A stretch of 63,400 nucleotides of DNA, the filler included, from Dugesia japonica (Eukaryota): the NCBI GenBank assembly GCA_001938525.1. It is 6 parts of 6 records of this genome, joined end to end, with 100 filler letters (N's around TTAATTAATTAA, not from the genome) between each part and the next. Parts side by side here need not be neighbours in the genome. Positions count along the whole stretch, not along the records: positions 1 to 9,866 come from MQRL01635696.1; 5 more parts are not named here. One strand, given 5' to 3'. The notes beneath the pieces were generated by a model. It saw nothing but the letters and a program-made list of their open reading frames with translations, had not been told where the DNA came from and did not search any database. This document shows positions 1 through 33,148 of this stretch, one piece after another. Position numbers and translations under genes: made by a program. Position 1 is the stretch's first letter, and each line of letters begins with the position of its first letter.

Positions 1-1205
1 TGAAATACCGGTATTTAATACAGTATAGAATTGACCGGTATCCCGGTATTGGATTCCATAGTTGTAACTTATTTGTTTAACTAATCTTTTTATTTTAATT
101 TATTATTTAGAATATTCAAAAAAGAAATAAGAGAGCATATTGTTGAAGAATTGACAAACGTTACAAAACTTTACATGTAACAAGTAAATGAAAACCCTAG
201 TCAAATGATGATCGAATGGATAAGCACGAAAGACGGTAATAATTACAACAGAGCAATCTTAGTAACAGATAATCGACTAATCAAAATAAGAGCTACCAGA
301 AAATATTTATTTGAAAATGACGTTTGGAATTTAAAGTTTTGTTATAAATATTTTAATCATAAGTGTTATTATGAAAAATATTATTATTATTATTATGAAA
401 ATAAGATTCTTACTATCAAAAATATTATCATTATTATCAAAAATAATAATTATTATCATTATCATTATCATAGTAATGATCTATTATAATAAAAATATAC
501 TTATTATTATTCTCAATTATCAAAATTTAGTTATCAAAAAGACTTGTAAAATTCTCTAAAACTAAATATAATACATAAAAACAACTAATAAAAAAAGGAA
601 ATCATTAAAATTAAATAAAACTAAAGTTGAGTTTTTTCCTCAAACATATCTAAGTAAGATATTTGAGCATCATTTTTAGTCATATTAGCAAAATTCAAAT
701 GCATAAAAGTAGTGTCATTTATATTCATAATCCTCATTCTCATTAAAATTCGTTTGGAAAATTTCATCATTTCTAGTGATATTCTATAAATAATAATAAA
801 ATTTTTATAAAAAATATGAATAAATTACGTTATCCTCAACCTCGTTTCTAACTGTCTTCATTGTAGAATTATTGATATAATTGTTGTTGATCATTGTACT
901 GCAAAATAAATTTAAAAACAATAAAAAATAGTTAAAAAAATTTACGTTTATTCTTAAATTGAAAAAGCGAAATAATCATAAAGGTAATTACATTTTATTC
1001 AAATGTGTGTAAATTAGTCAGCATAATCATTTACATAATCATTTCTATACGAATCACTATGTGCATGTATGAATTCAAAAATATTGTAACATAATATGTT
1101 TAATTATTTTTCGATTTTAAATACCGCAACGTAATAAGTTAGTTGCACATGAAATGCATTGGTTTTACATTACCAATAAATAACAACAAATCTATTTAAT
1201 TTTGA

Positions 1206-1560
1206 TTAAAAACATTTTTTCATATAACAATATTGATATTTCAACCACAATAAGCAATGCCGTCCATAAGTTGTTGTAAGTGGATCTTGAAATCGAACTT
1301 GAATATAATAGGCTTTAATAATCTTGAAAGCTACAAGACCAACATTGGTGGATAATAAAATCCAAATGGATCAAATACCAGTATATTTTCTGTCTTATTG
1401 TACACTGCTAGCCATTGTTCTCCACTGAGATTTGATGATTGGGTATTTACAATTATGGCTTTTGTGACTGGTATAAATGGAAGCTTGTCCAATGGATACA
1501 CGCCAGGAAAATCTGATCCAAGCCATTTTCTAGCAATTTGATTTATCTCAATTGAACAAT
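1206..1560 (-). pseudogene. Adenain-like cysteine protease (Polinton PRO), disrupted
   Basis: FPGVYPLDKLP...IIVNTQSSNLSGEQWLAVY...VFDPFG, then stop/frameshift and QDPLTTTYGRHCLLWL; catalytic His reads Q and catalytic Cys reads Y. Confidence 0.9.
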
Positions 1561-1632
1561 TAAAAATCAAATCAAAGTAATAACCAAAACTTACTTCATT
1601 TTGGTCAGCTATTTTCATGATATTGAGAATGT

Positions 1633-2170
1633 TTACATTTGCCTTGCTCTTTATGATGTAATTTGGGTTTCGTTTTCAAAAACACCGTAGATTATTACAT
1701 ATGCTGGTGTAGTCAAAGCATTCCCAAATTTTTTATCCAACCTCATATTCCATTGCTGGGGCAACTAACTCTGTTTAGTATCGAAATCTGGAGCAAGTAC
1801 AAAGGTAAAGAATAGATATTCGTTTTTGAACATCTCAAGTGTTATTCCACAATTCATAATCTTGTTTAGATATCCTATATTTCTAACTACCGATTGCATG
1901 TATGATAATCTGTAATTATCATTTTCAAAATCTTGAATAAATAATTCTCTATTTTATTCTATTATTCTATTTTTTGAAAGAGGTATGGNTTTGACATTGA
2001 AATGATCAAAATTCGAGATGGATGTTTTAAATTGTCCATTATATCAATCTCTGCTTTGAAATTTTACCAACAAAATATTTGGTAATCGACAATCTCCAAA
2101 GATTAATTTTTTTATAAAACGTTAAACTATCTTTACTTGAATGCTTGCGCTTTATTCTGGGGAAGCCATA
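1633..2170 (-). pseudogene. Polinton major capsid protein, C-terminal part
   Basis: FGDCRLPNILLVKFQ, NCGITLEMFKNEYLFFTFVLAPDFD, NMRLDKKFGNALTTPAYVIIYGVFENETQI; homologous to 24080-24250; stops and frameshifts. Confidence 0.85.
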
Positions 2171-2174
2171 AAAT

Positions 2175-2285
2175 CTTTGAATTCAGTCATAGCATTTGTT
2201 TTGAGAGAAGGTAAAATATATGCTTTATTATTTATTACATGAATTGCTGTTTTTATACCAATAGCTCCAATACGTCTAAGAATTT
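2175..2285 (-). pseudogene. Fragment of basic core-like ORF that precedes the MCP
   Basis: ILRRIGAIGIKTA...ILPSLKTNAM aligns with ILKRIGSFGMTTA...IVPTLKSNAI of 25165-25386. Confidence 0.7.
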
Positions 2286-2289
2286 GCAA

Positions 2290-2700
2290 ACAAATAAACA
2301 AAATAGGATTTGGAAAACATTTATTAAACAAAATCTTGAACAGTTTTTATCTTTCAAATAGGCTAATTGTATTGTTATATCTTTTNAATTCTTTGAATAT
2401 TACAGCTATCAAATACTTTTTATCACTTGTATAACTATTTTCATTCGATTCCTTATCATTTATAAATGGTGCATCATATATTTTTTACATATTATCAATT
2501 CTTGATAAAAGATTGTTGATTATTGTCTTATCCTCTAAACTGATTTACAATATTTGCATACTGAATGGACATCTTTTCAGTTTAACCGGATCCTAAATTA
2601 TAATAATAACAGTAATAATAGTTACAAAATTTACTTGGAATGCTTAAATAATCAGCTTTAGGAAGAAATTCATCTTGAAATGATAATAATCTCAGAATAC
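2290..2700 (-). pseudogene. Polinton accessory ORF X, intron-containing, unknown function
   Basis: GT-AG intron 2593-2634; 3' end (2290-2420) is homologous at DNA level to 29305-29435 (+). Confidence 0.55.
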
Positions 2701-3099
2701 CTGAAATTTTTTATGTATTTTTTCGACCAATCAAAATGCTCAAATTTTCAGCACATTTTTTCAGTACATTTGGTAGGCAGGTGGCAATGTGCGCTAGCAT
2801 ATATCTACGTAAAACCTTTAAACAAATTTTCCAAAATTGTATAATATTTTTACGATTCATTTTTAAGTTCAATTTGTCATTTATGATAAAATTTGTTAAA
2901 GTTCAATTCGTTACTTGCGATAAAATTTGTTATTTATCATTTATTAATTTATTGTCAAATTATCGATTTTGGAACTATCAATTTAAAATTAATTATTAAA
3001 ATTAAAGGTTAATTTTATTCAATTTACTAAAAAAATTATGTAAATATTTATTTTTTTATATTACTTATGAGAAAATGTTTTATTTTTCATGATAATCTT

Positions 3100-6000
3100 T
3101 ATCACGTTTTTTACTCGTTGACATACGAGTAAGAATTAGTATAAATACGTATGTAAATCCATTATTTTTTGCCCTAGTCTGAATTCTCAAAGATGTCTAA
3201 TACTTCTCTATTAACAGATCTCTAGAAAAAAATTAATGTTTGCAATTTGATAATAAAACTTGTATTTGAAACATTAAATTTTAATAAAATTTTGAAAAGT
3301 AATTTCTCGTTTATATTAAATAAGGATACTATATAGCTTGTTTATACGCATATTATTTTATATATTAAATATATTAGGATATAAGAAAGCAGTTATCACA
3401 ATATTTATAAGTAAGTACTTATCGGATTTCATTTTTAAATAACTCATTTGAACTCACGTAAAAATCGTTGATTTGCCTTTGCGAAATCCAAAAGACATCT
3501 CAAAAAATTGTTCTCCGAGTGAAGAACCAATCTATAAAAATTAAAATTTAAAAAACTAAATAAAGGTTGAAATAAAGATAAAATTTTGAAACATAATTTT
3601 GAAAGAGCTAAATTTTCAGTGATAAAGTATTGTGAGTAGTTTAGAAGCAAGTTAACATTTTTTGTGCTCTGGTTGGAAATTGTGTTTTAAAAAAAATTCA
3701 AAATCACAATTAATTAAGAAGTTAAAATAAATTAAAATTTTTGTAAATGTCAATTTTGTTTTGAAAGTTCAGAAGATTTTAAATGATAATTAAATAGCAA
3801 GTGATTTTGTTTTGGAAAGTTTATGAAAGTTTTTGTGAAAATTTTAAAAAATATATTATTACAAATGATAGTTCTTTGTTTTGAAATTTCGAAAAAACTT
3901 TTAAATTATATGTTAGTACGAATGATCATTTATTTTTGTTTTAAAAGGTCATGAAATTTTTTTNAATTTGTTTGTTTAAACGAANAATGATAGATATAGT
4001 TTTTATTTTAATAAATTTATTAAGTTGAATTCTGATGTTAATGATTCGAGGAGTTTTCCAAACTCGCCTAACAAGTATAATTCTAAAAGATTAAAATAAA
4101 ACTATTTTTTATAAGTTTATATTTCTGAATAAAGTCTTGATAGTGATAAAATATAGTTAAAATGAAACTTGATTTTTGAAATAAATTTTTGATTAGTAAA
4201 TTGAAACGAAATTCACATATAGTTCCCATCCCAGCGAATAAAATTTAAAGTAAAAGAACCCAAACATGCGAAAATTTTTAAGAATTTAAAAGTAATACGT
4301 AACCCTGCGGTTCAATATTTTTCATTGGATAACGATTTAAAATTATTTAAAGATTCTTCTAATAGTCAGGTATTTAATAATTTTACACAAACACAAATAT
4401 TTAATAAATAAATTGAACATAACATATAATACAAACAATTGATACAGATGATAATCTTAGATATAAATTAAGAAGCAGAGATATAATTATGGCACATAAA
4501 GAAAAAGATAATATAAATAAACAAAAAAACGGTTTTAATATAGCACCTGGATTTAGTTTTGGCGACAGAAATAAATTGAATATATTATCGATAAAAACGT
4601 ATTCCTAGAAACCCGAGGAATTTGATGAATGTTTTGAGAAAATGTCCTTTTGTGCGATAGCGTGTAATTGGAAAAATGAGGAATTTGTTAAAAAACTACG
4701 GTTGTATTTAAAAGACTTTGCACTACAAAGTTAAAAAAATTAATAGGTCCACCAAATATTTTAGTTGATTTAATAAAAGAACTTTAAAAGCTTATAATAG
4801 TTCCAATAGAATTGGAAAGATCATGTATACAAAAACTTTGAAATAGGATGCAAGGAACTACAAAGACTTTAGGTGAATATTTATACGATTTAAGAAAATT
4901 AGCTAAAATGACCTTTGGAGAAGGTGATAATATTGAACACGTTATAGAAAAACACTTCCTGAGTGGAATACATAGTTATATAAAATCTGCTCTGATAGCA
5001 GTAGAGTACAAAGATATTGAGGAATTGATGACAAAAGCCCGAAAGATTAAAGACAACTATAATTATAAACCTAAAGATAAGTAATCTATGCAATATAAAC
5101 CACATTATCAAATGATAGAAAACCCTACGCAATGGGGTGATATGAAATGAGCATACCAAGATAACCAAGATAATAAAAAATAATTATACTCATCACAAAA
5201 ATAAATATAATAAAAATTCCAGTCCAACGAGGTAGTATAAATATATAGATACTCCATAGAAGAGTTATATGAATAGAAATTCCAGTCCAAGGAGAAACCG
5301 GAATAATAATTATAATAAAGGCTACAGAAACTTGAGACCAAGATTTAACAATAGGGAATACAACCCCAAAAGAGAATCTGAATCAAACTATAGATATAAT
5401 AGAAGCCCAAGAAGAAACTTTAACGACAGAAATAACAGTAATGAACAAAGGAAAAATCTACATTATTCAAATGAAGAGAGAGATTAAGTAAATAACAGAG
5501 GACATATAAAATGTTATAACTGTAACAAATTTAAACACTTAGTCAGAGAGTGTCGAAGCCAACAGCAAAATCCCTGAAGTATAATAAAGAAAGAAATGTC
5601 ACTTGGACCATAAACTAAAGACGTAAATGTTATTAAAGTAGCTCAAAACGATGAACTCAAGAATATAAAAGCGAAATTACAGGAATTGCNCACCAGATGC
5701 AAAAGGATGCAAGACAGACAGCAAAAAAAAATTAACATGAGATAAATACTNACAAATCAGTTAAAGTAGATCTAGATNAGAAAGTAGCTGAAAGCAAACA
5801 AAAGTCGATGATAGAAAGTTTAAACCACGAAATGATCAACGATAATATAAACAAACTTAGATTGATACAATATCTAAAAGACATGATCGAATACCCCATA
5901 AAATATCGTGAACTGAAAGTATTATAAACTCCATTAGTAAAAGTAAAAGACAGAATAGAATTTGATGAGAGTCATAAAATAATAAATGAACTGATAAAAA

Positions 6001-7050
6001 ATTATAGTGAATTTATTAAAGCTAACAAAAATTGACAGAAACCCATAAAAGTACAAGTCTCCATAGAACCAAGTAGTTGCAATATAAAAGCTTTAATAAT
6101 AAGCCCTCAAGCGCTTACTAAAACAGAAAAATTACGAAAGATAATAAGAGCAAAATGACTGATAACATTAAAAAAAGACGATGAGATAAAACTATACTTC
6201 TATAATGAGGAGTTACTTGAAAACAACAGACTAATGGAGTATGGGATTATTCCTGAAAAGGATAACCATGTGAGAGTCAAGATAGTTAATAAATTATCCC
6301 AGGGACAGCAAGAAGCGATGAATTAAATATTAGATCTTCTAGAACAAGATATTGTAGAAAAGATAAAAGATGAAAGCGAAAAGTTACATATTCCACCTAA
6401 GAAACTATTTGGAGAACCAGAATCTCCAACAGACAATCAACCAGTTCCAACAGAAAATAAAATTTGATCAGTTCAAATAGAAAATACTAATCAATCAGTT
6501 TCAATAAAAAACATAATTAAAAACGCAGAACCAAAGATATCAAGACATCCAGATGAACCAGGTACTAAAAATGAGGAAACTACAAGAAGATCAAGAGGAA
6601 GACCAAGATCAAGTAAACCATCACCAATAAGAAACCAGGTAGATCGACTAATGAACAAAGCAGAAGCATTTGGCCATGCAAAAGAAAAATAATTTAAATA
6701 ATTTAATTCGAGATCTCATAATATTAACGAATATTGAACTTTTCGATATAGTAAGAATAAGCGAGCGAGCCAAATTGATATTGTTAGATATAGAAGTTGT
6801 AAAAAGACGCGTTAAAGAAATAGCAGAAACAAACAATGTTGACGAATTTAAGTAATAAAAGTTTTACTAGAAGATGGAATTGATTTAAATAAAGCAATTA
6901 TCACAACATTATTCATAAATAAATAAATAGAGAACCTGTCAATACTTATCAGCAAGAAAACGATGTTAAAAATTTGATCAATAGAAATAAAATTAAAGGT
7001 AATCTTTTATAAGTACAGTGATACTAATAATAACTTTATTATTAGACTTA
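3100..7050 (+). mobile_element. LTR-retrotransposon remnant (gag plus downstream degenerate ORF, no recognisable pol); boundaries approximate
   Basis: Gag above; possible LTR end ...TTAACA at 3657 followed by weak PBS-like TTGTGCTCTGGTTGGAAAT; degenerate TTTGTTTTGAAA repeats 3680-3960. Confidence 0.5.
4490..5575 (+). pseudogene. Ty3/gypsy-type Gag (capsid domain plus CCHC zinc knuckle), disrupted
   Basis: QGTTKTLGEYLYDLRKLAK...HFLSGIHSYIK (retrotransposon gag motif), N/R-rich linker, CYNCNKFKHLVREC (CX2CX4HX4C) at about 5512-5553. Confidence 0.85.
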
Positions 7051-7244
7051 GCAAGAGGTAAAATCGCTATATTAGCTTACGCTATACTAGCTATATGAGC
7101 TTTCGAGTAAGTAAACAATGTCAATTCAAGGTCAATTCAATAGTATACAATTTTGAAAGTCCAAAATCTAGGATAGCTGATATATTATTAAATACTTTTA
7201 CAATTATAGTTGTGTAGAACTCTTATAATATTACTCATATGTGA

Positions 7245-7400
7245 GTTCTAATAGATTTGTATAAATTAGCAAGAGTAGTCCACTGTTGGTTTGAACCAAA
7301 GTTATTTCCTGCTTTAAGACAGGTAAAATATAGACTTTTATGTGTAAATGTGTACTTAATAAAAAGAGTAATACTAAAACCTATTGGCAATGATGAATAA
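7245..7400 (+). pseudogene. TBP-like protein, C-terminal repeat fragment (second copy)
   Basis: Manual translation VLIDLYKLARVVHCWFEPKLFPALRQVKYRLLCVNVYLIKRVIL aligns with INLYTLARITKCMYEPELFP-x18-KVIILG of 29550-29795. Confidence 0.75.
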
Positions 7401-8562
7401 TTAATTTTTAAACAATTGTATTGGTGTTCGATTTGTGACCGAATGCAAACGGGTAGAATAACTGCTTCCGGAAATGCATATGTTGAATCGAGCTTGGCAT
7501 AGTTAAAACTATGTAAGCTGTTCGATAAGTTCAATTATAAACGATTTTGAACGGATGCTAACGGATTACAACTTAAAACCGGATCTAAATGGTCAAAATA
7601 ATTACTGCGCTGTACATCGTCGGAAGATGCAATGTAATGATACGCAAGGAACACAAGACTGTTACTGAAACAATGCATGAAAATAATTAATAATTATTAA
7701 TAATTTATTGATTTAAACTATTAACTTATAAAAAATTAATTAATGTCTTATTCCATATACTCTCCTCTTTGAAACTTCTATAACTTAAATACATTTGAGC
7801 ATATATATTTAGACTCTCCTGATCATTTTAGACAGCTAAAATCATTAAAATATACATATAACTCACTTTTGCAACACAAAAGTTGCATGCATGCAATACA
7901 CAAACACGTCTGAAAACTTAGACTTCCGAACTAAATTTCAAAAAACTCCCCCCCATCTTTTGAAACCATGATTTTCAAAAATTCCCAGACATAAAAAATA
8001 CAACAAACTCAACACCATCACCTATTCCAATTCTCCTTCTTTCCAACAAACCCAAATTCCCTCAAAATCCTCCAAAAACTCAAAACACCACACTCCTTTT
8101 AATTCAAACGCACGATAACTCATCTCTGTAATCTCTAAAAACATTTTAGCTCATAGTTACATTTGTTGGAATGAAACACCTAGTATAGAAAATGAAAACA
8201 GCAATAGGTAAACTCGCAATTTGAAAGCATATCACAAGAAATGAAAACGAAGAATCCATACAAATGAAAGACACAGCTCAGTTAAAAAAGAAATAATTAA
8301 AGAGGAAACTTGATTAGGGAACTTAAACTTAGGAAATAACCAGCAAAATCTATAATTACAGCAGGAAACAACTCGAAAATAAGAAAGCCAAAGAAGAAAA
8401 GAAGTAATAAAAGCTATTAGCAGAACAAAGAAAATAATGAATAGCAATAAGTTCATTAGACAAAATTAGAAAATCAAATTGAATTAATTATTAAAGAAAG
8501 AGAAAATAAACTAAATGAATTAAATAGTGGAAGAAACGACGAAATTAAATTAATTCTAGATA

Positions 8563-9217
8563 AGAAAAGAAAGAACGAACATCAAATTAATATCTAAGAA
8601 AAAAATAAAATAAATCATACAAATCAAAATGATTTATTTTAAAAAAGAAAATTAAATTTATACAAAAATATAAGAAAATGAAGACTTCCCATTGAAATAA
8701 AATTAGCAATTAAGAAAACTATAATCAAGAAAAAATCGAAGATTTTGAAAGTCCAGGTTAAAAATCTATAGCAAGACTAAAAAAGAAGACACAAGGGTTT
8801 GAGTATTGACCAATAAAACTCCAGTAATTTCGGAATTCCAAAATATAAATACCGATGAAATTTTTCAGCAGAAGAACAATAAAAATACTGAAACCGAACT
8901 CTGAATAAAAATCTCTAATATTACAAAACTGTAATTATTTCACTACTTGGTTTTGTGCAATGGTTTCCGACTGGAATAACATATGGAAGATTATGGAAGA
9001 CACTTCGAGTTAATAATAACTACCGTGGAGATGTCTATTCAAGGTTTTTGCTTGCTCCGAATCGGGATACAGACCATGTTAGACCAGAAAAGAAAATACG
9101 AACGTCAAATTAATATCTAAGAAGAAAATAAAATAAATCATACAAATCAAAATGATTTATTTTAAAAAAGAAAATTAAATTTATACGAAAATATAAGAAA
9201 ATGAAGACTTCCGATTG
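8563..9217 (+). repeat. About 130-bp direct duplication (8563-8694 and 9086-9217)
   Basis: Near-identical copies from AGAAAAGAAA to GAAGACTTCC. Confidence 0.9.
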
Positions 9218-9599
9218 TAATTACTGGTTAACAAGTGAAAGTTAACAATTAAAATATATTTTTCACTTGATAAATTCTTTTGCTTAAATAACAATAAATT
9301 TAACCATAAACTCTCATAATGTATTTATTATTAAACCGAAGGTATTAAATAAATTAACTGAGCTAAACCTTTTTAAACATTTTTAAAAAAATGAAAAATA
9401 AAAACAAAATTTAAATTTCCCGCAAAATTTGGCTATTAATTAAATCAAAAAAATTTCTGATTTTGATAAGATCCGATCATTTAATTCTATCAAAATCTAA
9501 TGAGATAAAAAAATTTTAAAACATCAATCAGATCAGAAATTAATAATCAATCAAAAAGAAAATCAATAAATGCGCAATAACTCATACGGTCGTAAACCA

Positions 9600-9747
9600 C
9601 AGTTGTAATCTATTTTTGCTAAGAGAGAAGAGGGGATAAAATTTTTTTTGACCAATAAAATTTCAAGGTCATTCAAAATGGACGATTCTGATTGTTCAAA
9701 GATTGACCAATCAAATAAGTGAAGTCATCCGCTTACATCTACCTATT
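9600..9747 (-). repeat. Polinton-family terminus (TIR end)
   Basis: rc AATAGGTAGATG matches the right end of 14246-18788 for 11 nt; CCAAT motifs lie inside. Confidence 0.55.
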
Positions 9748-9866
9748 TATTTGACTATTTGTTCATTATTGCAGCATTATTGAACTTTATTATAGGTTTA
9801 TTATTATAAAACCTGAAGTGTGTTATCCCTCACCAGGATATTAAAGAAATTTTTTATCATTGATAT

Positions 9867-9966
9867 NNNNNNNNNNNNNNNNNNNNNNNNNNNNNNNNNN
9901 NNNNNNNNNNTTAATTAATTAANNNNNNNNNNNNNNNNNNNNNNNNNNNNNNNNNNNNNNNNNNNN
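9867..9966. other. Artificial contig linker 44N-TTAATTAATTAA-44N (also 19528-19627, 29205-29304, 42715-42814, 51658-51757)
   Basis: Five identical 100-bp spacers with stop codons in all six frames. Confidence 0.97.
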
Positions 9967-13027: not shown

Positions 13028-15869
13028 NNNNNNNNNNNNNNNNNNNNNNNNNNNNNNNNNNNNNNNNNNNNNNNNNNNNNNNNNNNNNNNNNNNNNNNNN
13101 NNNNNNNNNNNNNNNNCAATATTTCCAATAATCCAAGGTTTTCTTTCTTTTTAATATTTTCTCGGCGGTTGCCAAATTTTCAAAATTTCAACTTTTGATT
13201 TAAATTTTTAATTTTTTTGTCAATATTTATTATTGACACATTTCATTATATTTTGTTTATTTCTTTGATATAAAAATTAGCATATCGCACGCTTATCGTA
13301 TAAAATATAAAAAAAAATTTCAATATTTTTACATGACATTACAATATATTTTGCGAAATCAAAGTTTCGTTTTCTATAGGTTGGCGGAAAAGTTTTGTCG
13401 TTTTTTTCATAATTTAAAAAGTTTTTTATTATTAAAGTATTTTATTAATGGTGTTTTAATAGAATAATTAGTAATCGAAGTAGCTCCTTGCTGAATCAAT
13501 AATATCAAACCAGGTTTAGGCATTATGAAGATTTCACGATGATAAAACTCTTGATTCTTTGAATCAAAAATTTGTAAATATTCTGTTTCATATCGTTAAT
13601 ATATTGAAAGTGCTGGCCTTTCACAAAATGCTCCATTAAAGGGTAAAGGTGACAGTCATTTATTTTCATAAAATGTTTAATGTATTGACATAGTATTCAT
13701 CAGAAAATGATTATTCAATTCATGTTTTTTATACTTTTTTAGTTGTTAGAACTTCGAATTTTTGACTTTTGTCTTCATTACGATTTAACTTTAAATTAAA
13801 ATACTAAAAACTATTAAAAATATTTCAAAAAAACTACATTTTAATTGAAGCCTATATTTTAATGAAATCACATATACGATCAATGGTTAAGTTCAACAAA
13901 TACTCTTGAAATAATTGTAATTGTTAAACTAATCAATTATTATTAGTTAAATTTTAATAAAATTAAATTCATTGAAAATGTTTTAGGCAAACTAGTGATG
14001 TCGTTAATATAAAATATTTATAAATAATTTATAAAAAAATGATTTTGAACCAATTAGAATGGATTTAAATCGGATATATTTGGATTGTTATCATTCGTGC
14101 TATAAACTGTGTCGAAATATCCGAAATTCTGTGAAAATAAAGAAAGCTTTGAAAAGATTTATTAGTTAAGTACATATTAATAGTTAACAAGCGCAAACGT
14201 TAATTTTATTTCTTGCTCAAATAAACTGAACAATTTTAATGAGTTAGTAGGTAGAGATTAGCACACAGCCTCTGCACACATTCAGTAGCCCCCCCCCGTG
14301 ACGTAATGAAATTTAATTCAAATGCATTTAGTTGGGAATTTAAAAATGACATCATAAATTGCATAATTAGGTGAAATTATCTCAGAGTTGGTTTTTTTCC
14401 CTGTGTATTTAGTTGGGAAAATATTTTGCACACAAATTATGTCATGAGATTGATTTCAGCAGTGAAATTTCACTTAATAGGAATAAGAAAGGCTATTTTT
14501 TCTAGTGTATTTAGTTGGGAAACCTTTTAGGCTTATTAGGCGGTAATAGTTTTTAGGGCTTTTTAGTTGCGAAATTACTCGGTGAGGTCGAATGAGGTCA
14601 ATTTTTGATTGGTTTTAGGTAGTTTTTGTTGAAAGTTTTCTTAGTGAGATCAAATAATGTCGATTTTTAGTTCAGATGAATTTAGTGGAATATTTTCTAT
14701 TGAATGGTTAACCTGGTTCATTTTTGGGCTATTTGATCAATTTTCGGTTGGTTCAGGTGAATTTCTCTAATTATTCAGTCAATTATTGCCTCGGGATTAG
14801 TCAGTTTGAGCAAACTTTCTCAGCTTTAGTTAGTTTTAGAATTTATTCGGTGAGGTCAATTTTTGATTGGTTTTAGAGGATTTTGTCCAATCCTGCTTGT
14901 TCTTTGGTTTTATGGGTTTCGTTTTTATTTTGATAGCTAATATTCAAATACAATGCTAGAAAATAATAGTTCAACATAACAAATACTGATATTATCATTA
15001 AAAATATTAATCTCAACATTGAAAATATTAGTTTCAATAGATAAATTTATGATTTAATCAATAAAAACAGAGGTTTTATTATGAAAATGTGGGTTTTGTA
15101 ATAATATATATGGGAATTATCGTATAATTATTGGTTTTATCAGGAAAATATGGGTTTAATGAAAAACAGGAGTTTTATCATGAAAATACTGGTTTTACCA
15201 ATAAAATTTGAGTTTTACAATGACAGTTTTAATTTGATAATTGAATATAAGACCATTAAATTAGATATATTCAATACACTACATTAGGATCTATTGATAT
15301 TTTCAACATTTAGACCAACACAAAGACAAACAAGTAATATTTATTCAATTATTACTTATTCAAACTAGATTTCGCTTTATTCTTACTAAGTTTCTTTGGT
15401 TTAAGTTAGAAAACATGAGAGGTAGGACAAGAGTGAGTTGATCAAATTTACTATAACTCGTGAAATTTAATCTGAAATTTGATAGTAGTCGATAAAAATT
15501 AACTGAAATTTCATAGATGTATTAAAACAGTTTATAAAAATGCACAGTAGACGATAAAAATAATCTGAAATTGCACAGTAGTTGATAAATATTTTATGAA
15601 ATTGCTCAGCAACCACAAATTATTTTATCAAAAGCATTAAACACTTTATGAAATTTACATGAAATATGCAAGATGAATGAATAATATGTTGCATTACATA
15701 CACAGTATGTGTCCAGTACAAGTGTGAGACTAGTGCAATATAAATACCACTCACTCGAATGAAAATTATTGATTTTAATAATGACAAGTTTCATGACCTA
15801 CTAATTCTTTCATATAATTACTTGGTCAAAATTGGTTTCAATTGCTAAAGTTATAGGAGAGAATATCTA

Positions 15870-16410
15870 AACATACACAATACTCGTTACTAACAGCCAT
15901 ATCAACACAATACGCGATATCATCAAGTCTTAATACATAATGCTCGCTACCATTAANNCTTAACATATACAATACTCACTGTCATTAAGTGTTAGAAGAC
16001 AAATAACTGCTAGTAAAAATTATATTCAATGACATAATTTTTCTGGTTTATATTGGGAAAATCTTTAATGATTTTGTAATGGAGGACATACTCATTCATA
16101 AACTCATCATTCTAAATAAACATAAAATTTTATATTAAAATAAAACATGCATACCAAAACCCATATATTGAATAATTATTAACCCTTGTTTTCACAAAAC
16201 TAATTTGTTACTATTATGTAATAAAAGGATAAATTTAATTTTAATTAATTTATGATCACCATACATTATTATTTATTTATTAAGTATTTATTATTACCAT
16301 ACAATACTCGCTCCCATTAAGTCTTAACATGTACAATACTCACTAATAACGGGTATCTCAACACAATACTCGCTACCGACAGCTCTTAACATACAGAATA
16401 CTCGTTATCA
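15870..16410 (+). repeat. Degenerate about 30-bp tandem repeats (ACAATACTCGCTACCATTAAGTCTTAAC) in two blocks
   Basis: Units visible at 15876-16000 and 16300-16410. Confidence 0.75.
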
Positions 16411-17589
16411 TCATTTACCTATTGATTATTCAGTTGATAGTTTAATATGTTCATCGCTTATTTCAAATTATCAACCCTATATTACATACTAAGTATATAC
16501 TTTGCAACCAATGACCGGTTATTTCTTCATATATTTTCAACTTAATATAGAACTTTACTTTGACAATAGACAATCTAATGTGCTTTATNNNNNNNNNNNN
16601 NNNNNNNNNNNNNNNNNNNNNNNNNAACCAATTAAACATATATTTGTAATATAAATTTATTCTTTCATTCATTGAAATTCTAACCAATTATTCATGAAAC
16701 TAATATTTACCTTAGTAAATAATTAATTAATTTAATTTTCAAAGAAATTCTTATTCAATCATTTAAAATTAAGAATACACATAAACAAAATTTTAAATAT
16801 ATCTAATAAATTGAAATATCTAAATTGAAAATAAAAAATGATCCTGATTTATTTTAGTATTTACTGAATGTGAAACCATAAATTGTAAAGGTTTTTCCTC
16901 TATAAATTGTAAAAGTTTAAATTTTATAAAGTAGTACCAATAATAAGCATCTATTTATGAAAAAGCTTAAATTTTCACTTCTATTTAAAATGTCTAAAAT
17001 TATTGTATTTTACACTTAAAATTAAAGTTTTAGGTACTTTTCTGATAATTATNNNNNNNNNNNNNNNNNNNNNNNNNNNNNNNNNNNNNNNNNNNNNNNN
17101 NNNNNNNNNNNNNNNNNNNNNNNNNNNNNNNNNNNNNNNNNNNNNNNATTTTCAAAACCTAATAAATTTGCTACTATAATTTTAATTTAACCATAAAGAT
17201 ATACATGGAATCTTATTTATTTTCAAAATAACCTTTTAAAATTTATTCAAAACATAATTCAAATTACTAAAAAAACAGTTTTAATTAAATTTCACATTGA
17301 AAATTAATAAATTCATCATACTTAATTTATTCAATCAATATTATTTGCAATATTTTCAATAAATAGTTACAAATAATTTCATTAATTTAATCTTAATTAA
17401 AATTCATATTATAAATTAAATTTTAATTACATTTTTACGATAAAAAATAAAACAATTTATTAAAAATACATGGATATATTTATATTTCAAAATAACAAAT
17501 CAAAATATAGAACAGTTTAAATAATTAAATATTAATTTAATGATATTAGTCTTGATCAGCGAAAAATTCTATATCGAGTATATGGTTTT

Positions 17590-18075
17590 ATTATAAATGT
17601 TGAGATACTTTTGAAATTTTCGATAAACGTTACCAAATCNGGGAGGACGGCTGTACATATTCGTTAGGAAGCATTTTTCAACAGACGATATTTTAGCTTT
17701 GTACAGTCAAATTTTCCTCCTGAGTAAATTAATACCAAATTTGAAACCATACGAGTTATGTACGCAGAGAAAATTGAGTACTAAAATTCAAATTTTGAGA
17801 TTTTTTCACCAGTTATTTAATCGAGTATTAATTTTGGCTATTTTAAGTGAACATATCTGGAATCAGCAAATAAATTCTCTATCGAATAGTCACTTTTTTT
17901 TAACCTATTTTAGAATGAAAATCTTTTCGAAATATGTTTATTTGTGAAAAATAATCGCCGTAAAATTCTCTGCAGTTTGGTAAAAAAATCTTTGAAATCA
18001 GAGATATAGAACATATTTTTTCAAAGCTTTCGGAATTCTCGGATTTCCATAAAAAATTCATTTAAAATATTTAAA
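17590..18075 (+). repeat. Interspersed repeat, second copy at 33180-33665
   Basis: Collinear blocks such as GTACATATTCGTTAGGAAGCATTTTTC and AAAATCTTTGAAATC-GAGATATAGAAC. Confidence 0.85.
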
Positions 18076-18170
18076 AATGTTCATATTATTAAAACCACAT
18101 AGGCTGCTCATCTGGATTCCATAAAGAATTATACTGAATTACCCAAAAATTACCCAAATTTTCAATTCCC

Positions 18171-18390
18171 GAAAACCGACAAAGTTTGCCCAGATTCGAC
18201 CTCACCGAGAAATTTTCAACGAATTTCACCTAAACTACCCAAAAGTATCAATCCCGACGAAATATTTGATCAAATTCATTAAAAACCGACAAAGTCTGCC
18301 CAGATTCGACCTCACCGAGAAATTTTCAACGAATTTCACCTAAACCACCCAAAAGTATCAATCCCGAGGAAATATTTGACCATATTCACC
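18171..18390 (+). repeat. 110-bp tandem duplication inside the right TIR arm
   Basis: AAAACCGACAAAGT... at 18172 and 18282, near-identical. Confidence 0.9.
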
Positions 18391-20651
18391 TGAACCAACA
18401 AAAAATCGACCACTTTTGACCTAACCGAGCAAAATATGGATAGAAACCACCGAAAACCAATCAAAAATTGACCTCATTCGACTTCATCGAGTTAATTCGC
18501 AACTAATAAGCCTAAAATATTTCCTAACTGGACAAAATAGCCCCTCTTAATCCTATTACATAAAATTTCATCGATGAAATTAATCTCATGACATAATTTG
18601 AGTGCAAAATATTTTCCGAAATAAATACACAGGGAAAAAACAATCTCTCTGACATAATACTACCTAATGATGCAATTTATGATGTCATTTTTAAATTCCC
18701 AACTAAATGTACTAGAATTAAATTTCAATACGTCACGAGGGGAAGCTACTGAATGTGTGCAGAGGCTGTGCGCTAGTATCTACCTATTTGAGTTTAATGC
18801 TTTATAATCTTAATAAAATAAGAATTGATTTAAATTGATTTAATTTGAATTGAGTTTCAATTAGAACTTTGTGTCTAAAATTAATTGAAAAATTCAGAAT
18901 ATTGAAATTAGAAAAAGTAATTTAGACATTAGAATTTTGAAATTTTTATTTAATAAATACAAATCAATTTATTGAAATGTAATGTACTCAAATAAATATT
19001 CTGGAATATATCAGACGACAAAAAGACTAATTTAAATAATTAGTTAATATGTTATATTTATTAATGTTTCTCAGTTTTTTATCTTCATCGTAATATAACT
19101 TCATTGTAAATTGCTGAAATTTAAAATTAAACATGAATAAATAAATATTTATGTTTATAAGAAACAAGTAAAGAAACTTTTTCCTTTTAATTTTTAGTAA
19201 AAATATAATTAGAAACGAACTAGCAATTAAGCAAAATTGGATGTCACTCAAAATCTGCTTTCATGATTGATATAAACCAACAATAGATTAAAAATCATTT
19301 GAGGAATTAAAGGCTGCATTGTTGAATATATTTATTTTTAAGTTGCTTTTTTGTAATTTAAAGAAAAAGCATCGATTATTATTCCCTTTTCTTTTGTAAT
19401 TTCCAATTTCTTTTAATTAGGTTATTTTTAATGAAATGAGAAACAAAAGTTAACATTACAATGGACACTTACATTCAATTGAAACATAAGTAAACTATTG
19501 TTACTAAGGATTGCTGCAATTATAATANNNNNNNNNNNNNNNNNNNNNNNNNNNNNNNNNNNNNNNNNNNNTTAATTAATTAANNNNNNNNNNNNNNNNN
19601 NNNNNNNNNNNNNNNNNNNNNNNNNNNATTTAATTAGGTATTAAGAAAAGAAGAAAGCATTAAAAAACTTCAATTCGATCCAAAAGTTCTTGAAAACATG
19701 TTATTTCTAATGAAAAATTTGGTTAGGTTTTTTAACTTGATCCACCAACAGCAGCTATCGAGATTTATAAGTAAGAAAAAGTGAACGTTACCAATAAATT
19801 GAACATGGACATACAATATTACATGTCCGGAGATAATTAACATAAACAGAAAAAATGTTAAAATTCAAGCTCTATCCATTGCATTTGGTAAACAAATACA
19901 ATGTCAAGTGGATAGGAAGAAAAATAGTGGTAATATATTTTTTATTTATGTAAACTTATTAATTGTTAGTTTAGATCCAGTATGCAATGTCAAACAATCA
20001 CACCAACATCTTGTTTTTTTGGTTGTAAAAGACTTTATTTGTTAAGTGTTGTAAATATTTTGTATATTTTTATGTGATGTTTTTCTTTCAATGTTATATA
20101 ATAAATCTTATTTAATCAAAGTGTTTTTTTATTTTAAACATATAATTTTAATTAAATCTTATATTTAAATAAAAAATCTCTTTTAAATTAACATCTTGAA
20201 TTGTTAGTAATATTTTTAATTCGAATACAAAATAATTTCTTTCAATATTTTCCAGCATTTCTTCTATAACAAAATCCAAATTCATTATTAATGAACATTT
20301 AAATTAATTTTGTTTATACTCAATATGCATGTGACATGTTCAAAGCATGCTTGCGTTTTGCACAATGCATGTTTGCATTAAAGAAACTTAATAAATAATA
20401 AAAAAACTTAATAAATAAAAAAAACAAATAATAATAACAACTTTTATTTAAATAAATACTTTAATATACAAATTTGATTCTAAAGAAGATTGGTTATGCG
20501 TTCACAAATGTTTTTTTGAGAAGGTTTTCTTTTTTAATCTAAGTAAAAAACAATTAAAATAACATTTAGAAACCAAATAAATAACTACCATTGTTTGATG
20601 TTTTGTTCTTGACCAGGCTAGATCGAATGAACGGTTTTATGGAAAAAAAAA

Positions 20652-26945: not shown

Positions 26946-28561
26946 AACCCAAAAGAGTTATATAATACAAATAATATTAAAGGTTCCAGGGTGAATATTA
27001 AAATTTTATACATATTAATCCATGTGTGCATCATAAATACGTGTTATGTAACGACAATGTAAAATAAACAAAGGATTGATATAAACTTAACAACTGATTA
27101 GTAAGGCATTTGTATAATATTATAGACGATATTTTTGAACATATAACTTCATCGGTTCAAGGTAATAATAATAACTAATATTAATCTAAATAATTATTTA
27201 ATAGTAGNNNNNNNNNNNNNNNNNNNNNNNNNNNNNNNNNNNNNNNNNNNNNAATTGATGAAATAGATGCAACATTAAAGAGAGAGATCAACAATACTCA
27301 ACCAAATGATGATATTATTACTGAGAAACTGATTAATGCACAGCCAAATTATGTCATTATTGATGATGAAATAATTGAAATAGTTCTAAATGATTATATT
27401 TTTGATGAAGTAATACCTAACACAAATACAAATAAGTATATCATTCGTGAGGAATTGACTGATTCACAGTCCAATGAGGAAATAAATGATTGATGAAGAC
27501 ATATTGNNNNNNNNNNNNNNNNNNNNNNNNNNNNNNNNNNNNNNNNNNNNNNNNNNGAATTGACTGATTCACAGTCCAATGAGGAAATAAATGATTGATG
27601 AAGACATATTGATTGAATTATAAATGAAAAGAAAACATGTATGTGATTTAAATAAATTTTTTCATAATTTTTTTTTGTGTTATCTTACAGATATTTCAAT
27701 TGTAATAATTAGATGAAAGTTAAAATATTGACAAAATTAAATAAAAGTCATTACAATTTTTAATAAATTACACAGAAGTCTACAAACATTTTCAAAAATT
27801 GCATAGAAAAAATATATATTTGTTCAAATTTATATTTTTAGAGTATAAAATGTATCGAAACAATAAACTTTAATTTAATTATAACTATAATTATAATTAT
27901 AATGTAATCAAAATAATTAAATTATCAAACGCGATTTTATTTTGAAATGCAAAAAGAATTTATAAATGCACTTAGTAAGCAGTTTAAATAAAGACACATT
28001 AAATGAGTGACTGGATAATATTTTTAATAATTTTCTAAAAAAAAAGTTNNNNNNNNNNNNNNNNNNNNNNNNNNNNNNNNNNNNNNNNNNNNNNNNNNNN
28101 NNNNNNNNNNNNNNNNNNNNNNNNNNNNNNNNNNNNNNNNNNNNNNAAAAAAAAACAAAAAAAAACAATTTTTTAAAAGAAAATCTTTGAGTTATAATTT
28201 TCTTCGTCGAGAGGTGTGTCTTTTTTCTGACTTAGAAAATTTTTTGAAAAAAAGTATGAGTCATGATCTAGAAAATTTTTTCTTTGTTATATACTTTTCT
28301 TTGTTAGGGGGCTTTGTATGAATCATCCGATGAGTCATTGTCTTTGTTCTACATGAGCGATGACTCATCATGATGAGTTATGATCTTTGTTCAAACCGAC
28401 GATGACTCACCAGCAGGACTCATTTCTTTGTTACAAAAAATGATGAGTCATACAAATTTTTCATAATCATTATTTAATTTAATTAAGCTACTTACTATTT
28501 GTAAGTAGCTTATAAGCGACTAATATTTTTTATTGATCTAATGCGCTACTATCTACCTACT
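26946..28561 (+). mobile_element. Nested terminal fragment of a related Polinton (spliced acidic ORF remnant plus TIR)
   Basis: Ends ATCTACCTACT (rc AGTAGGTAGATAGTAGCGCA) at 28561; replaces the integrase 5' half; contains N gaps. Confidence 0.65.
28255..28452. promoter_or_regulatory. Cluster of AP-1-type (TGASTCA) and HMG-box-type (CTTTGTT) motifs
   Basis: TGASTCA at 28257, 28331, 28361, 28403, 28444; CTTTGTT at 28282, 28342, 28385, 28426. Confidence 0.55.
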
Positions 28562-29204: not shown

Positions 29205-29549
29205 NNNNNNNNNNNNNNNNNNNNNNNNNNNNNNNNNNNNNNNNNNNNTTAATTAATTAANNNNNNNNNNNNNNNNNNNNNNNNNNNNNNNNNNNNNNNN
29301 NNNNGTACTTGATAACTGTAATATTGAAGGATTCAAAAGATATAACAATACAATTAGCCCTATTTGGAAGATAAAAACTGTTCAAGATTTTTATTAGTAA
29401 ATGTTTTAAATCATATTTTGTTTATTTGTTTTCAATAAGTTATACACTATTTTGTTAAGTTTTATTAATGCTATAAATAAAAACACAATTCAAACTAATA
29501 AGATTTATTAAATATCACATTATTTGTTGTTTAATACAATTGTATTGAA

Positions 29550-30005
29550 CTAGTTTTGTATTTTCTCGATTAAACTGTTCAAATCTGACATTACATTATA
29601 GACTTGATTTTGATAATATAAATTCTTGAAACCAAGTATTATTACTTTTCNNNNNNNNNNNNNNNNNNNNNNNNNNNNNNNNNNNNNNNNNNNNNNNNNN
29701 NNTGGAAATAATTCGGGTTCATACATACACTTGGTTATTCTTGCTAATGTATACAAATTAATTGATTGTTTCAAATTGACTACAATAGTTAACAATTGTA
29801 ACTGAATGTTTTGAATGTCATACTGTAAATGTTTTATTTCTATTGGCTTCTTACATCTTATGATTCTACAATTACCTGATATGGAGAAAATAATCGTATA
29901 CTTTTCACTTTAATGAACGATTTATGATGGTTTACCGATAGGAAATTTCATTTTACTGGTTATTTCTTGAGATACTTGTCCTTTATAATTAATATTAGTA
30001 ATCAA
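29550..30005 (-). pseudogene. TATA-binding-protein-like gene, about 151 aa with two TBP repeats
   Basis: ITNINYKGQV...KYTIIFSISGNCRIIRCKK (repeat 1); IQLQLLTIVVNLKQSINLYTLARITKCMYEPELFP-x18-KVIILGFK (repeat 2); two in-frame stops and a 52-N gap. Confidence 0.82.
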
Positions 30006-30084
30006 TAGTATTATTAATAGCTTTCAAATATGTGCTTTGTAAATAATTATTTTAAAAAATATAAACAAGGTTTTAAATTATTAA

Positions 30085-30714
30085 TTTTTTAAAATTAAGA
30101 AATTATGCTGTATATCAAATTGTTGGTCCCATTGGTAGTGGAAGAACACTGTTTGNATGTAAATTATTGAAATCCACTTTATTTAAATCAAGATTCAATA
30201 AAATTTACTAGCATATAGGGACAGATGAATTGCAAAGATTGACTCAATCAGAGTTTTCTAATATAAAAATGACAATTATAAATGGATTTGATGATATTTG
30301 GAGCAAGAGATTGAAACCAGGTGATATAATTGTTGTTGATGATCTATACCAGGAAGCAAATAAAATGATTTTAGCAATTTATTAACAAAAATATCCAGAC
30401 ATTGTAATGTGACTGTAAGTTTCATTACTCAAAATCTATTTCATCAAGAAGGTGGTAAAAGAACTAGTAATTTAAATGTACAATAGTTGGTTTTATTTAA
30501 AAGTCTAAAAGATAAAACAGTGGTTGATTTTCTAGCAAGACATGTTTATCCTAATAATAGAAATTTGGTTATGTATTCATTCAAGGATGCAACAGTAAAT
30601 CCACACGGGTATATATTTCTTGATTTTACACAACAATGCCCAGATGAAATTAGAGTACAATCTGATATTTTTAATCAAAGTTTAATAACCGTATATAAAG
30701 AATTGAATAATTAA
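30085..30714 (+). pseudogene. A32-like genome-packaging ATPase
   Basis: IVGPIGSGRT (Walker A), IIVVDDLYQE (Walker B), SRH, ITQNLF, PHGYIFLDF; stops and a frameshift. Confidence 0.93.
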
Positions 30715-30734
30715 GGTAAATATTTGATTAAAAA

Positions 30735-31004
30735 ATGTTTGAATTTAAAAAGGTTTTAGTTGATCAGGTAAATGACGGTTGGGAAAACGAGAATAATTCT
30801 AAAATGAAAGGTAAAAGACTGTCTGTAAAGAACAGGAAAGAAACAAAGAAGAATTTAATAAAAAAGAAGACAAAGAAAAAGCATACAAAGAGGAAGCATA
30901 TAACAAAAAAACAGGTAAAGAAACAGTTGAGCAAGTTCAAAAAACTATCAAAAAACTATGGAAAGAAACTTTCAAATGTTAATGGAAAATGGATCAAGAT
31001 ATAA
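30735..31004 (+). CDS. Lysine-rich basic protein (candidate DNA-binding core protein)
   Basis: Intact 89 aa; N-terminus MFEFKKVLVD matches MAKFKKIVVD at 28671 (-), same position after the ATPase. Confidence 0.7.
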   Translation: MFEFKKVLVDQVNDGWENENNSKMKGKRLSVKNRKETKKNLIKKKTKKKHTKRKHITKKQVKKQLSKFKKLSKNYGKKLSNVNGKWIKI

Positions 31005-31303
31005 ACCATATAACTGTTTATATTTAAAAAGTAATTATGAAATTTAAACAAAGTCTTCCGTTATTTAATATATTCCTTAAGATTCCAAAAGAGTCGACAA
31101 GGAAATTATTACAGTTATTTCCAACATTTTTCATAGAGGATTTGTAAGAGATTATTGTGAATATTCTTCGTGGTAATTTAATTATAAGTAAAAAAACTAG
31201 AAGTACAGCATGATAAAAGGTCATTCCTTTGACTTGTAAATACGAAGAATAGGAAATCAATCATTGTCACGAATTTATCTCACATTTGTATCAAATTGTT
31301 GTA
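30988..31303 (+). pseudogene. Small Polinton ORF preceding the integrase
   Basis: KLLQLFPTFFIEDL*EIIVNILRGNLII resembles the E...NxLxGNV motif of a conserved small Polinton ORF. Confidence 0.55.
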
Positions 31304-32337
31304 ATGGACAAAATCAAACCAAAATTAACAGACCCGAAAAATCCAGCATGGTTCAAAGGAGTGGCGAAACTATGGAAAGCAACACACAATGCAAAAAGCG
31401 AGACGAAAAAGAGGTTATTGAACCAATTAACATACAGTCTGAACAAGCCAAAGTTGGAAAAATTCCCAACAAGACCGTATAAAACCTTTGATTTTGATGA
31501 TTCATGTCAAATGGATTTGATGGAAATGATATCTTATTCAAATATTAACAAAGGATACAAGTATATTTTGACATGTTTTGATGTATTTAGTAGATTTACA
31601 AGAGTTGTGCCGATAAAATCAAAATCTGCCAATGAAATGGAAGCTGCAGTCAAAACAATCTTTAAAGAGGGACATTCAGATAATTTACAAACTGACTTGG
31701 GAAAAGAATTTAATAATTCAAAAGTCAAGAATATTATTAATCATCTCAAAATAAGTTATTATTCTGTATTTTCACAATGCAAAGCAGCATACATTGAAAG
31801 ATTTAATTGAACATTGCGAGATGCATTGAAAAAGTACTTTGTACATACTGGTAATTAAACCTGGATACATGTTATACCGAAAGTAATAGATAGTTATAAT
31901 CATACAAGTCACAGAGGATTAAATAAGCAAGACCCGTTAATGTATCATCTGATAATAAATTATGGCTTTTAAGACAACAACCAAAAGTAATCAAGAAACC
32001 GAAATATAAAGTTGGTGATCATGTTAGAATCTCAAAGATATTCTATATATCACCATTCATCAAGACTTTCGATAGTAATTGGAGTGATGAAGTGTTTCAA
32101 ATATCAAAAATCAATACTAAGCAGAATCCAATCATGTATGTGATTAAAGATCATGAAGAAAATATTATTGTTGGAAAATTCTATGAACAAGAATTAAAAG
32201 TTATTCCCCAACCAACCGTATTTAGAATAGAAAAGATTATCAGATAAAAGAAAATTGGAAAGTATAAACAATTATATGTAAAGTGGCATGGGTATGAAAA
32301 ACCAAGTTGAATATTAGCATCTCAAGTAGTAAATTAA
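31304..32337 (+). pseudogene. Retroviral-like DDE integrase with C-terminal chromodomain
   Basis: QMDLMEM, DVFSRF, LQTDLGKEF, IERFN; KYKVGDHVRISK; LYVKWHGYEKPS; several stops. Confidence 0.96.
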
Positions 32338-32354
32338 ACAAATAAGAAGGAAAA

Positions 32355-32694
32355 AATAAGCAAAACGAATAATTTCTATATACTATTATCGAGTATTAGT
32401 TGTCCACATATTCATCCCGATAATAATGCAAGTAGATTCATTTTTGAACTTGCAAATCCTAATTACTTGAATGAACAATAAAAAGTAGCCTTGATGGACT
32501 TTACCTTTATAAATAACAAATCATACATCAAATATGTAACAGGTGATGATTATGAGAGGAATGTAGAAATCATAATCAATAACAAAGAAAAATCATTGTT
32601 GGTTCATGATGTTGGTTTTGAAATAATTGATAAAAGATCATTGTTAATCACATTAAAATATCATGATTATGTTGTAATATTTCACAATTTAAAA
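32355..32694 (+). pseudogene. Minor capsid protein N-terminus, interrupted by a hAT MITE
   Basis: FYILLSSISCPHIHPDNNASRFIFELAN...KVALMDFTF, homologous to the 26403 copy. Confidence 0.85.
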
Positions 32695-33148
32695 CAGTGT
32701 TTCTTAACTTGTTTTATGCCATGCCCCACCTAAGTTTTAAAACTTTTAATATGACCCCCGTATAACATAATATTTTTTAATTTTTCAATAAGTATCTTAG
32801 ATGATGGACTTCAAGTAGAAATAACAAGAAAGTTATTAAACAAACATAATATATTCAGGTATTCAAATCAAATTTATCTGAATGCATCTCGGCCACCTTA
32901 TAATGTCATTTCATCGCTCTTATAAACGGAGTCATTCGTTGTAAGTTACTCAGTAAAAATGGCGCAAAATATTGAAATGGAAGCCAAAAGTTAATTGCAC
33001 TCTATACTGGATGTTTACTAANNNNNNNNNNNNNNNNNNNNNNNNNNNNNNNNNNNNNNNNNNNNNNNNNNNNNNNNNNNNNNNNNNNNNNNNNNNNNNN
33101 NNNNNNNNNNNCCCCTGTGGAGTGTACGTCCCAAGTTGGGAAACACTG
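32695..33148. mobile_element. Non-autonomous hAT (Charlie-like) MITE
   Basis: TIRs CAGTGTTTCTTAACTTG / CAAGTTGGGAAACACTG; 8-bp TSD ATTTAAAA / ATTTAGAA. Confidence 0.85.

Follow-up and report, generated by a model that had tools for sequence, protein, structure and literature searches.

A broken copy, in Dugesia japonica, of a Polinton-borne TBP-fold gene whose intact product is a candidate late-promoter factor

Proteins with the fold of the TATA-binding protein (TBP) are found in several kinds of virus. The herpesvirus TBP mimics (KSHV ORF24, EBV BcRF1 and HCMV UL87) have a TBP fold with retained phenylalanines and a polar interface, and act on a variant TATA box of late genes in viruses that have no RNA polymerase of their own; ORF24 needs both its TBP-like phenylalanines and its polar interface, and reads TATTWAA (both according to the available part of PMC12529657). 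Each is a large protein of several domains, one of which binds the polymerase, and has five partner factors. Divergent TBP folds are also encoded by giant viruses (Heterosigma akashiwo virus, and homologues of the ASFV B263R type); the polymerase that these work with is encoded by the virus. For Polinton-related elements, a TBP-like gene has appeared in print as a label: the legend of Figure 5 of Starrett et al. 2021 (PMC8502044) names a TBP gene of MELD viruses whose PolB is adintovirus-like, in a section on non-animal datasets. The label comes with no analysis of family, residues or promoter, and may stand for the family described here or for another. A term search for TBP or TATA gave no match in the main text of the Polinton papers PMC11161782, 10.64898/2026.10.13.758929, 10.64898/2026.06.19.733378, PMC11131425 and PMC8097293, or in one supplement of Starrett et al. 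Beyond the legend label, the literature searched held no description of the family; subscription journals, Repbase and bioRxiv supplements, which lay outside the search, may hold one.

The window, that is, the whole stretch of DNA analysed, consists of 63,400 nucleotides of AT-rich sequence in six pieces from Dugesia japonica (GCA_001938525.1). A sequence-only reading had proposed that its plus strand at 7245-7400 conceals a second, diverged copy of a TBP-like gene present at 29.6 kb, on a different contig and in a place where the ORF track gives only an antisense ORF (7235-7534, minus strand). These points were borne out. The plus frame is free of stops over 7245-7397, reads as had been quoted and meets a stop at 7398, and the antisense ORF is the sole long one listed there. 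Spacers of the form N44-TTAATTAATTAA-N44, which we infer to be contig joins, lie at 9867-9966, 19528-19627 and 29205-29304, between the 7.2-kb copy on piece 1 (1-9866) and the 29.6-kb copy on piece 4. The local score between the two, 71, is significant against shuffled controls (mean 23.7, maximum 56, 0 of 5000 as high), and the fragment ranks first among the non-self matches to the 29.6-kb copy in 1263 stop-free segments of the window, with the runner-up at 43; 12 of 20 residues are identical to the 29.6-kb peptide (BLASTP of the pair, E 9e-9). A profile of 102 relatives, run over the six frames of the window, gave 36.5 bits for the 7245-7397(+) core (aligned 7230-7376), 116.7 bits at 29571-30002, and at most -2.4 elsewhere. 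The fragment alone had no Pfam TBP match at E <= 0.05, and no candidate was returned when its 51 aa were used as a query among longer proteins, which is weak evidence. It is a genuine, diverged second TBP-like copy. As for the antisense ORF, its being a real full-length gene was ruled out for the lower part, which shadows the TBP frame: at other loci, the antisense of TBP genes matches its residues ~108-165.

The remnant proved longer than had been proposed, starting at about 7071. Residues 11-129 of the intact relative P0015 align by tblastn with ~7071-7391 in one frame, across the stops at 7215 and 7242 (38% over 127 columns), and a subfamily HMM gives 52.6 bits at 7167-7379. The interval 7071-7400(+) holds part of repeat 1, with deletions, and most of repeat 2; the stop-free core covers the helix, the stirrup and two strands of the latter. 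In place of an open frame of ~150 codons there are deletions and stops at 7215, 7242 and 7398, with one more upstream at 7059, the fourth phenylalanine is missing, and the second glutamate of the stirrup is a lysine. To judge from its internal stops and the absence of the C-terminal helix, 7071-7400 is a pseudogene, itself without function. Low-depth contigs from two independent DNA runs (6691-7244, 6696-7348 and 7302-7509) match the locus with 0 to 7 differences; the remnant is therefore not an assembly artefact.

Intact relatives are numerous. A search with P0003, which itself matches PF00352 at E 4e-15, accepted 182 of the 188 candidates as relatives (E <= 1e-3). The family alignment and profile were made from 102 of the 120 relatives listed, and when the profile was run over 1.84 billion representatives, 62 clusters (50% identity) reached E <= 1e-30; in IMG/VR, neither the family alignment nor P0015 found a relative. 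Family members, which we call mini-TBPs, are typically of ~150 aa (145-165 aa from the 5th to the 95th percentile). The dN/dS ratio had a median of 0.2 and a maximum of 0.45, and stayed below 1 in all 31 usable pairs, which are not independent (42 genes); this shows that the family is under purifying selection.

The structure predicted for an intact member (pLDDT 96) suggests the two-repeat TBP saddle over the whole length: the top 44 Foldseek matches were all TBP (best E 5e-9), and the VIA Z score to TBP was 13.1 (147 residues, rmsd 2.6 A), compared to 6.7 for the next unrelated fold. Like cellular and archaeal TBPs (PF00352; PDB 5fur, 7o4i and 1mp9), the mini-TBPs retain three of the four intercalating phenylalanines (F41 in 101 of 102 sequences, F100 and F116 in all 102) and the acidic stirrup of repeat 2 (E96 in 99 of 102, E98 in 101 of 102). 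They differ in having ~150 instead of ~180 residues and only 18-27% identity, in the replacement of the first phenylalanine by K or P, and in a remodelled DNA face: N6, Q28, R47, T73, R104 and N114, near-invariant, stand where the canonical TBP P0179 is hydrophobic, and of the paired asparagines that accompany the hydrophobic face, the second has become a serine. The stirrup is the TFIIB contact of TBP; helix H2, by which regulators grip TBP, is deleted in the family relative to P0179. The genes are intronless and lie in mobile elements, in contrast to those of cellular TBPs, and the 7.2-kb copy is moreover a pseudogene. Longer divergent TBPs (P0200-P0260, 155-190 aa) were also seen, in which H2 is present and several of the polar DNA-face residues are in common with the family. 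Whereas the herpesvirus mimics are large proteins with a polymerase-binding N-terminal domain, a mini-TBP of 145-165 aa is a bare saddle; the box discussed below is a different one, and structural matches to the mimics were weak only (BcRF1, E 0.014), so that any likeness would lie in the mode of action. Among giant-virus homologues the best E was 3e-8; these proteins are of 186-500 aa with 10-18% identity.

The other copy in the window (29571-30002, minus strand; PF00352 E 9e-4) is near full length, with stops at 29924 and 29912 and an assembly gap at 29651-29702 that is bridged by contigs of two runs. It had been claimed that the 7.2-kb copy has the same spacing and supplies the 18 residues masked there. 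The spacing is indeed equal, 18 codons separating the shared FP from the next strand in both copies, though shifting by one residue suits the weak tail about equally. The second claim failed, since only 9 of the 18 residues are identical in an intact protein related to the 29.6-kb copy, the last four are off-family, and the subfamily is a different one. An 80-row tree puts the 7.2-kb copy, whose branch is long (2.42), with P0015 and P0017 (99/99), and P0003 is the partner of the 29.6-kb copy (100/90). One 17-row clade contains the two copies, which were joined in 0 of 200 bootstrap trees. The tree thus places the window copies in different subfamilies, each beside intact relatives. A wider tree set 11 canonical TBPs apart (SH-aLRT 100); 13 of its rows had been labelled canonical uninspected, two of these were placed with the mini-TBPs, and the monophyly of the short forms was not established there. 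The eukaryotic type of the stirrup motif would fit a decayed retrocopy or paralogue of a host TBP/TRF gene, but the 7.2-kb copy is identical to a mini-TBP at 29 of 49 positions, compared to 18-27% between the family and cellular TBPs, and this nesting within the family, away from the canonical forms, has already largely refuted a host origin, which we regard as extremely improbable.

Two diverged copies had been taken to argue for a stable family gene rather than a single capture. This interpretation is partly supported: the stable family gene stands, on the 182 relatives, the purifying selection and a recurrent Polinton neighbourhood, but two copies are no argument against a single capture, because one old capture followed by inheritance within the elements fits all the data.

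The neighbourhood was examined at 61 metagenome loci, of which L060 and L061 (25-residue matches, no family neighbours) were left out of all counts. The remaining 59 are short, non-independent loci drawn from few projects. A core Polinton gene was found at 27 of them, the proportion being 15 of 20 for loci of at least 3 kb and 6 of 8 for those of at least 5 kb; 32 were without a core gene. A core or recurrent accessory gene was present at 53 of 59, as scored with cluster profiles built from those same loci. The core genes confirmed were the A32 ATPase, the rve integrase, the adenoviral protease, a DNA polymerase with endonuclease VII, and a double-jelly-roll capsid fold; L003 and L012 hold all of them on the mini-TBP contig, and L043 and L041 most. 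The polymerase was recognized through a PHROG DNA polymerase match only (E 5e-20), with no Pfam PolB match and no match in a PDB sequence search. This set corresponds to that of Polinton/Maverick elements, which hold polymerase, integrase, ATPase, protease and double-jelly-roll capsid genes and have inverted repeats with a 6-bp duplication (available text of PMC8097293). By its neighbours, the gene is shown to belong to a group of animal Polinton/Maverick elements. Two accessory genes were also observed. A leucine-rich-repeat gene with a signal-like start lies two genes past the mini-TBP in one subfamily (L024:1918-3327, L021, L026, L031 and L040), and the unassigned cluster-2 gene lies between the protease and the mini-TBP (L032:83-646, L043:5870-6352 and 22 loci) and has, by eye, a nuclease-like acidic motif.

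Beside the 29.6-kb copy, and divergent to it, lies a Polinton block at 30089-32634(+), with the ATPase, a cluster-4 gene, the integrase and the start of a cluster-9 gene, which we take to be a likely minor capsid gene. On piece 1, Polinton remnants at 1227-2649(-) comprise the protease, the end of the major capsid gene and small conserved genes (clusters 13 and 1). An inverted match of 89% links 2284-2416 with 29305-29435; there piece 1 runs from the cluster-1 gene directly into cluster 13, as if a TBP-ATPase-integrase block had been deleted from that copy. These remnants, the nearest core genes to the 7.2-kb copy, are 4.4-5.8 kb from it.

On its other side, a Polinton-type terminus had been placed 2.3 kb away, and an end motif of the AGTAGGTAGA type was found at 9728-9747(-), 2.35 kb from 7400 (20-mer pattern, 2 mismatches), its partner end not being on the contig. 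The 20-mer pattern, which was drawn from such ends, has 4 matches in the window and 0 in 100 shuffles. That such ends are genuine element ends is confirmed by an element of 4.5 kb sharing the motif (14246-18788), which has inverted repeats of ~450 bp (77%) that begin with this motif, and a perfect 6-bp target duplication, TGAGTT, a hallmark of Mavericks in the available text of PMC8097293; it holds no recognized core gene. Part of it, 17593-18100, matches 33174-33687 at 76%. Another end motif, at 28542-28561(-), lies between the ATPase and integrase remnants of another copy and is followed by repeated TGA(C/G)TCA AP-1-like sites; it likely marks a nested element. Several CCAAT-like boxes were noted at 9600-9730, immediately inside the 9747 end.

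The 7.2-kb copy is probably the right-hand part of an old Polinton ending at 9747. Its Polinton context, based on this one end motif and on family membership, is only probable, because a gag-like fragment separates the copy from the core genes. This decayed frame (4500-6950, plus strand) has a CCHC knuckle (PF00098 E 2e-4 at 5488-5577), a SUMO-like piece (PF11976 E 0.023 at 6159-6323) and an AT-hook-like stretch; zinc knuckle and SUMO-like features are described for planarian Burro elements in the available text of PMC6431247, and we infer a Burro-like retroelement, resembling the N-terminus of giant Burro-type gypsy elements. The frame ends ~100 bp before the remnant. Adjoining the remnant on the right and converging on it is a weak match to a herpes-tegument-type (VTD) deubiquitinase (7538-7693, minus strand; PF04843, below cut-off at E 0.011). 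Summed depth is very high there, and neither the PDB nor the 61 loci gave a match; most non-viral VTDs are in Helitrons, according to the available text of PMC9741609. Should the match prove real and belong to the element, a Polinton would here carry a VTD. For 7400-7700 and 8200-9100, the locus clusters, PHROGs and the PDB gave no match.

With such flanks, which were found at no locus, the family could be Polinton-borne and the 7.2-kb copy nevertheless a displaced scrap in a patchwork of mobile DNA, Burro-like on the left and Helitron-type on the right, the 9747 end, with only ~20 bases in common with the other ends, belonging to another element. Depth is indeed patchy, with troughs at 7403-7467 and 7976-8111. 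However, nearly the whole of 7160-9743 has a depth well above that of the low-depth contigs, with a fall at the motif, summed contig depth in the two runs going from 111/75 at 9608-9743 to 2.3/0.5 at 9744-9860, where an edge effect is possible. Moreover, relatives in DNA and RNA runs join 7903 to 8142, and the second trough is therefore a local insertion; the VTD match is, as said, below cut-off. We thus consider a displaced scrap quite unlikely. The segment missing from those relatives, 7904-8141, is of 238 bp, and a direct duplication of 142 bp was seen at 8557-8698 and 9080-9221 (94%).

Summed contig depth was ~1e4-1e5 over TBP cores, compared to 7-20 for locus-specific contigs, which points to many related copies, although depth is not a copy number. 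RNA runs X19 and X22 gave 376 and 84 reads on 5800-9860, nearly all partial and none at >=99%; they therefore derive from relatives. On 29305-33021 there were 1042 and 82 reads, 1 of them at >=99%, with strands mixed. Elsewhere in the window, remnants of Mariner-type transposases and plexin-like host exons were noticed (47978-48229, 56443-57048 and 58584-61847), the plexin-like stretch, at 58.6-61.8 kb, being below cut-off but indicative of an animal.

A candidate promoter motif precedes some of the genes of these elements. In the deduplicated 70 bases before each start codon, and with motif and gene groups picked after viewing the sequences, YATAAACR occurred before the ATPase gene in 11 of 12 cases, cluster 4 in 6 of 9, the major capsid gene in 5 of 7 and cluster 2 in 8 of 11 (shuffle expectation 0.1-0.3 each, reverse strand 0). 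Lower proportions were obtained for clusters 6 (3/5), 9 (3/7), 1 (3/17), 13 (1/6) and 11 (1/7), with less than 0.5 per group in shuffles. Within the same 70 bp there was none before the integrase (0/7), the protease (0/5), clusters 5 and 10, or the TBP gene itself (0/43), which had a canonical TATA box in 18 of 43 cases. Most sites lie 32-39 bases before the ATG (~35 bp). The window has 28 sites, including those of the ATPase (30060-30067, plus strand) and the capsid gene (24988). The box may be general to Polintons, all loci scored being from the TBP-gene set.

On the simplest reading, the TBP gene would be expressed early and its product would then read the box, by analogy with KSHV ORF24 and its TATTWAA. 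We consider it rather likely that 7071-7400 is a broken copy of a Polinton-borne TBP-fold gene of ~150 residues whose intact protein is the late-promoter factor of the element. The TBP gene would be expressed early by host factors from its ordinary TATA promoter; its product would bind YATAAACR through the polar, remodelled DNA face, the retained acidic stirrup would recruit host TFIIB and RNA polymerase II, and the loss of H2 may allow escape from the regulators that grip it. The mini-TBP would thereby help to switch on the packaging ATPase, the major capsid gene and two others.

The main rival is that host TBP reads the box, the mini-TBP being a Polinton gene that acts as a decoy or repressor, tying up TFIIB or blocking host or early promoters. 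Going by PDB titles, cellular TBP binds TATA variants; in one entry, PDB 1qn3, it was crystallized on the adenovirus TATA box in its C(-25) variant, and host TBP may therefore suffice. A TFIIB-side stirrup kept on a protein with a rebuilt DNA face and one phenylalanine lost would suit a decoy, and the loci yielded no further gene recognized as a late factor. We take the C(-25) variant, by its numbering, to be TATAAAC. A specific ligand, however, fits better with DNA-face residues that are near-invariant across 102 sequences, and the box stands before morphogenesis genes but not before that of the TBP itself; we therefore hold the decoy to be unlikely, and retain the late-promoter factor.

Itself only a fossil, the 7.2-kb locus contributes the point that this genome was colonised by two or more subfamilies bearing the gene. 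The family bears on how Polintons, which lack an RNA polymerase, time their capsid genes and on whether a helper virus is needed, and the mini-TBP with its matching box is a protein-DNA pair testable in vitro. If the late-factor reading is true, the TBP-mimic strategy of herpesviruses extends to integrating animal viruses, and the mini-TBP is a natural variant of TBP specificity. We propose, tentatively and a little short of an even chance, that transcription in a whole clade of animal Polintons follows a cascade of two stages, in the style of viruses, with one TBP of 150 residues and altered specificity, which would be the smallest known viral late-transcription system. In that case the longer relatives that keep H2 would record steps from the cellular TBP to the minimal form, and integrated copies could switch on their capsid genes without a helper virus.
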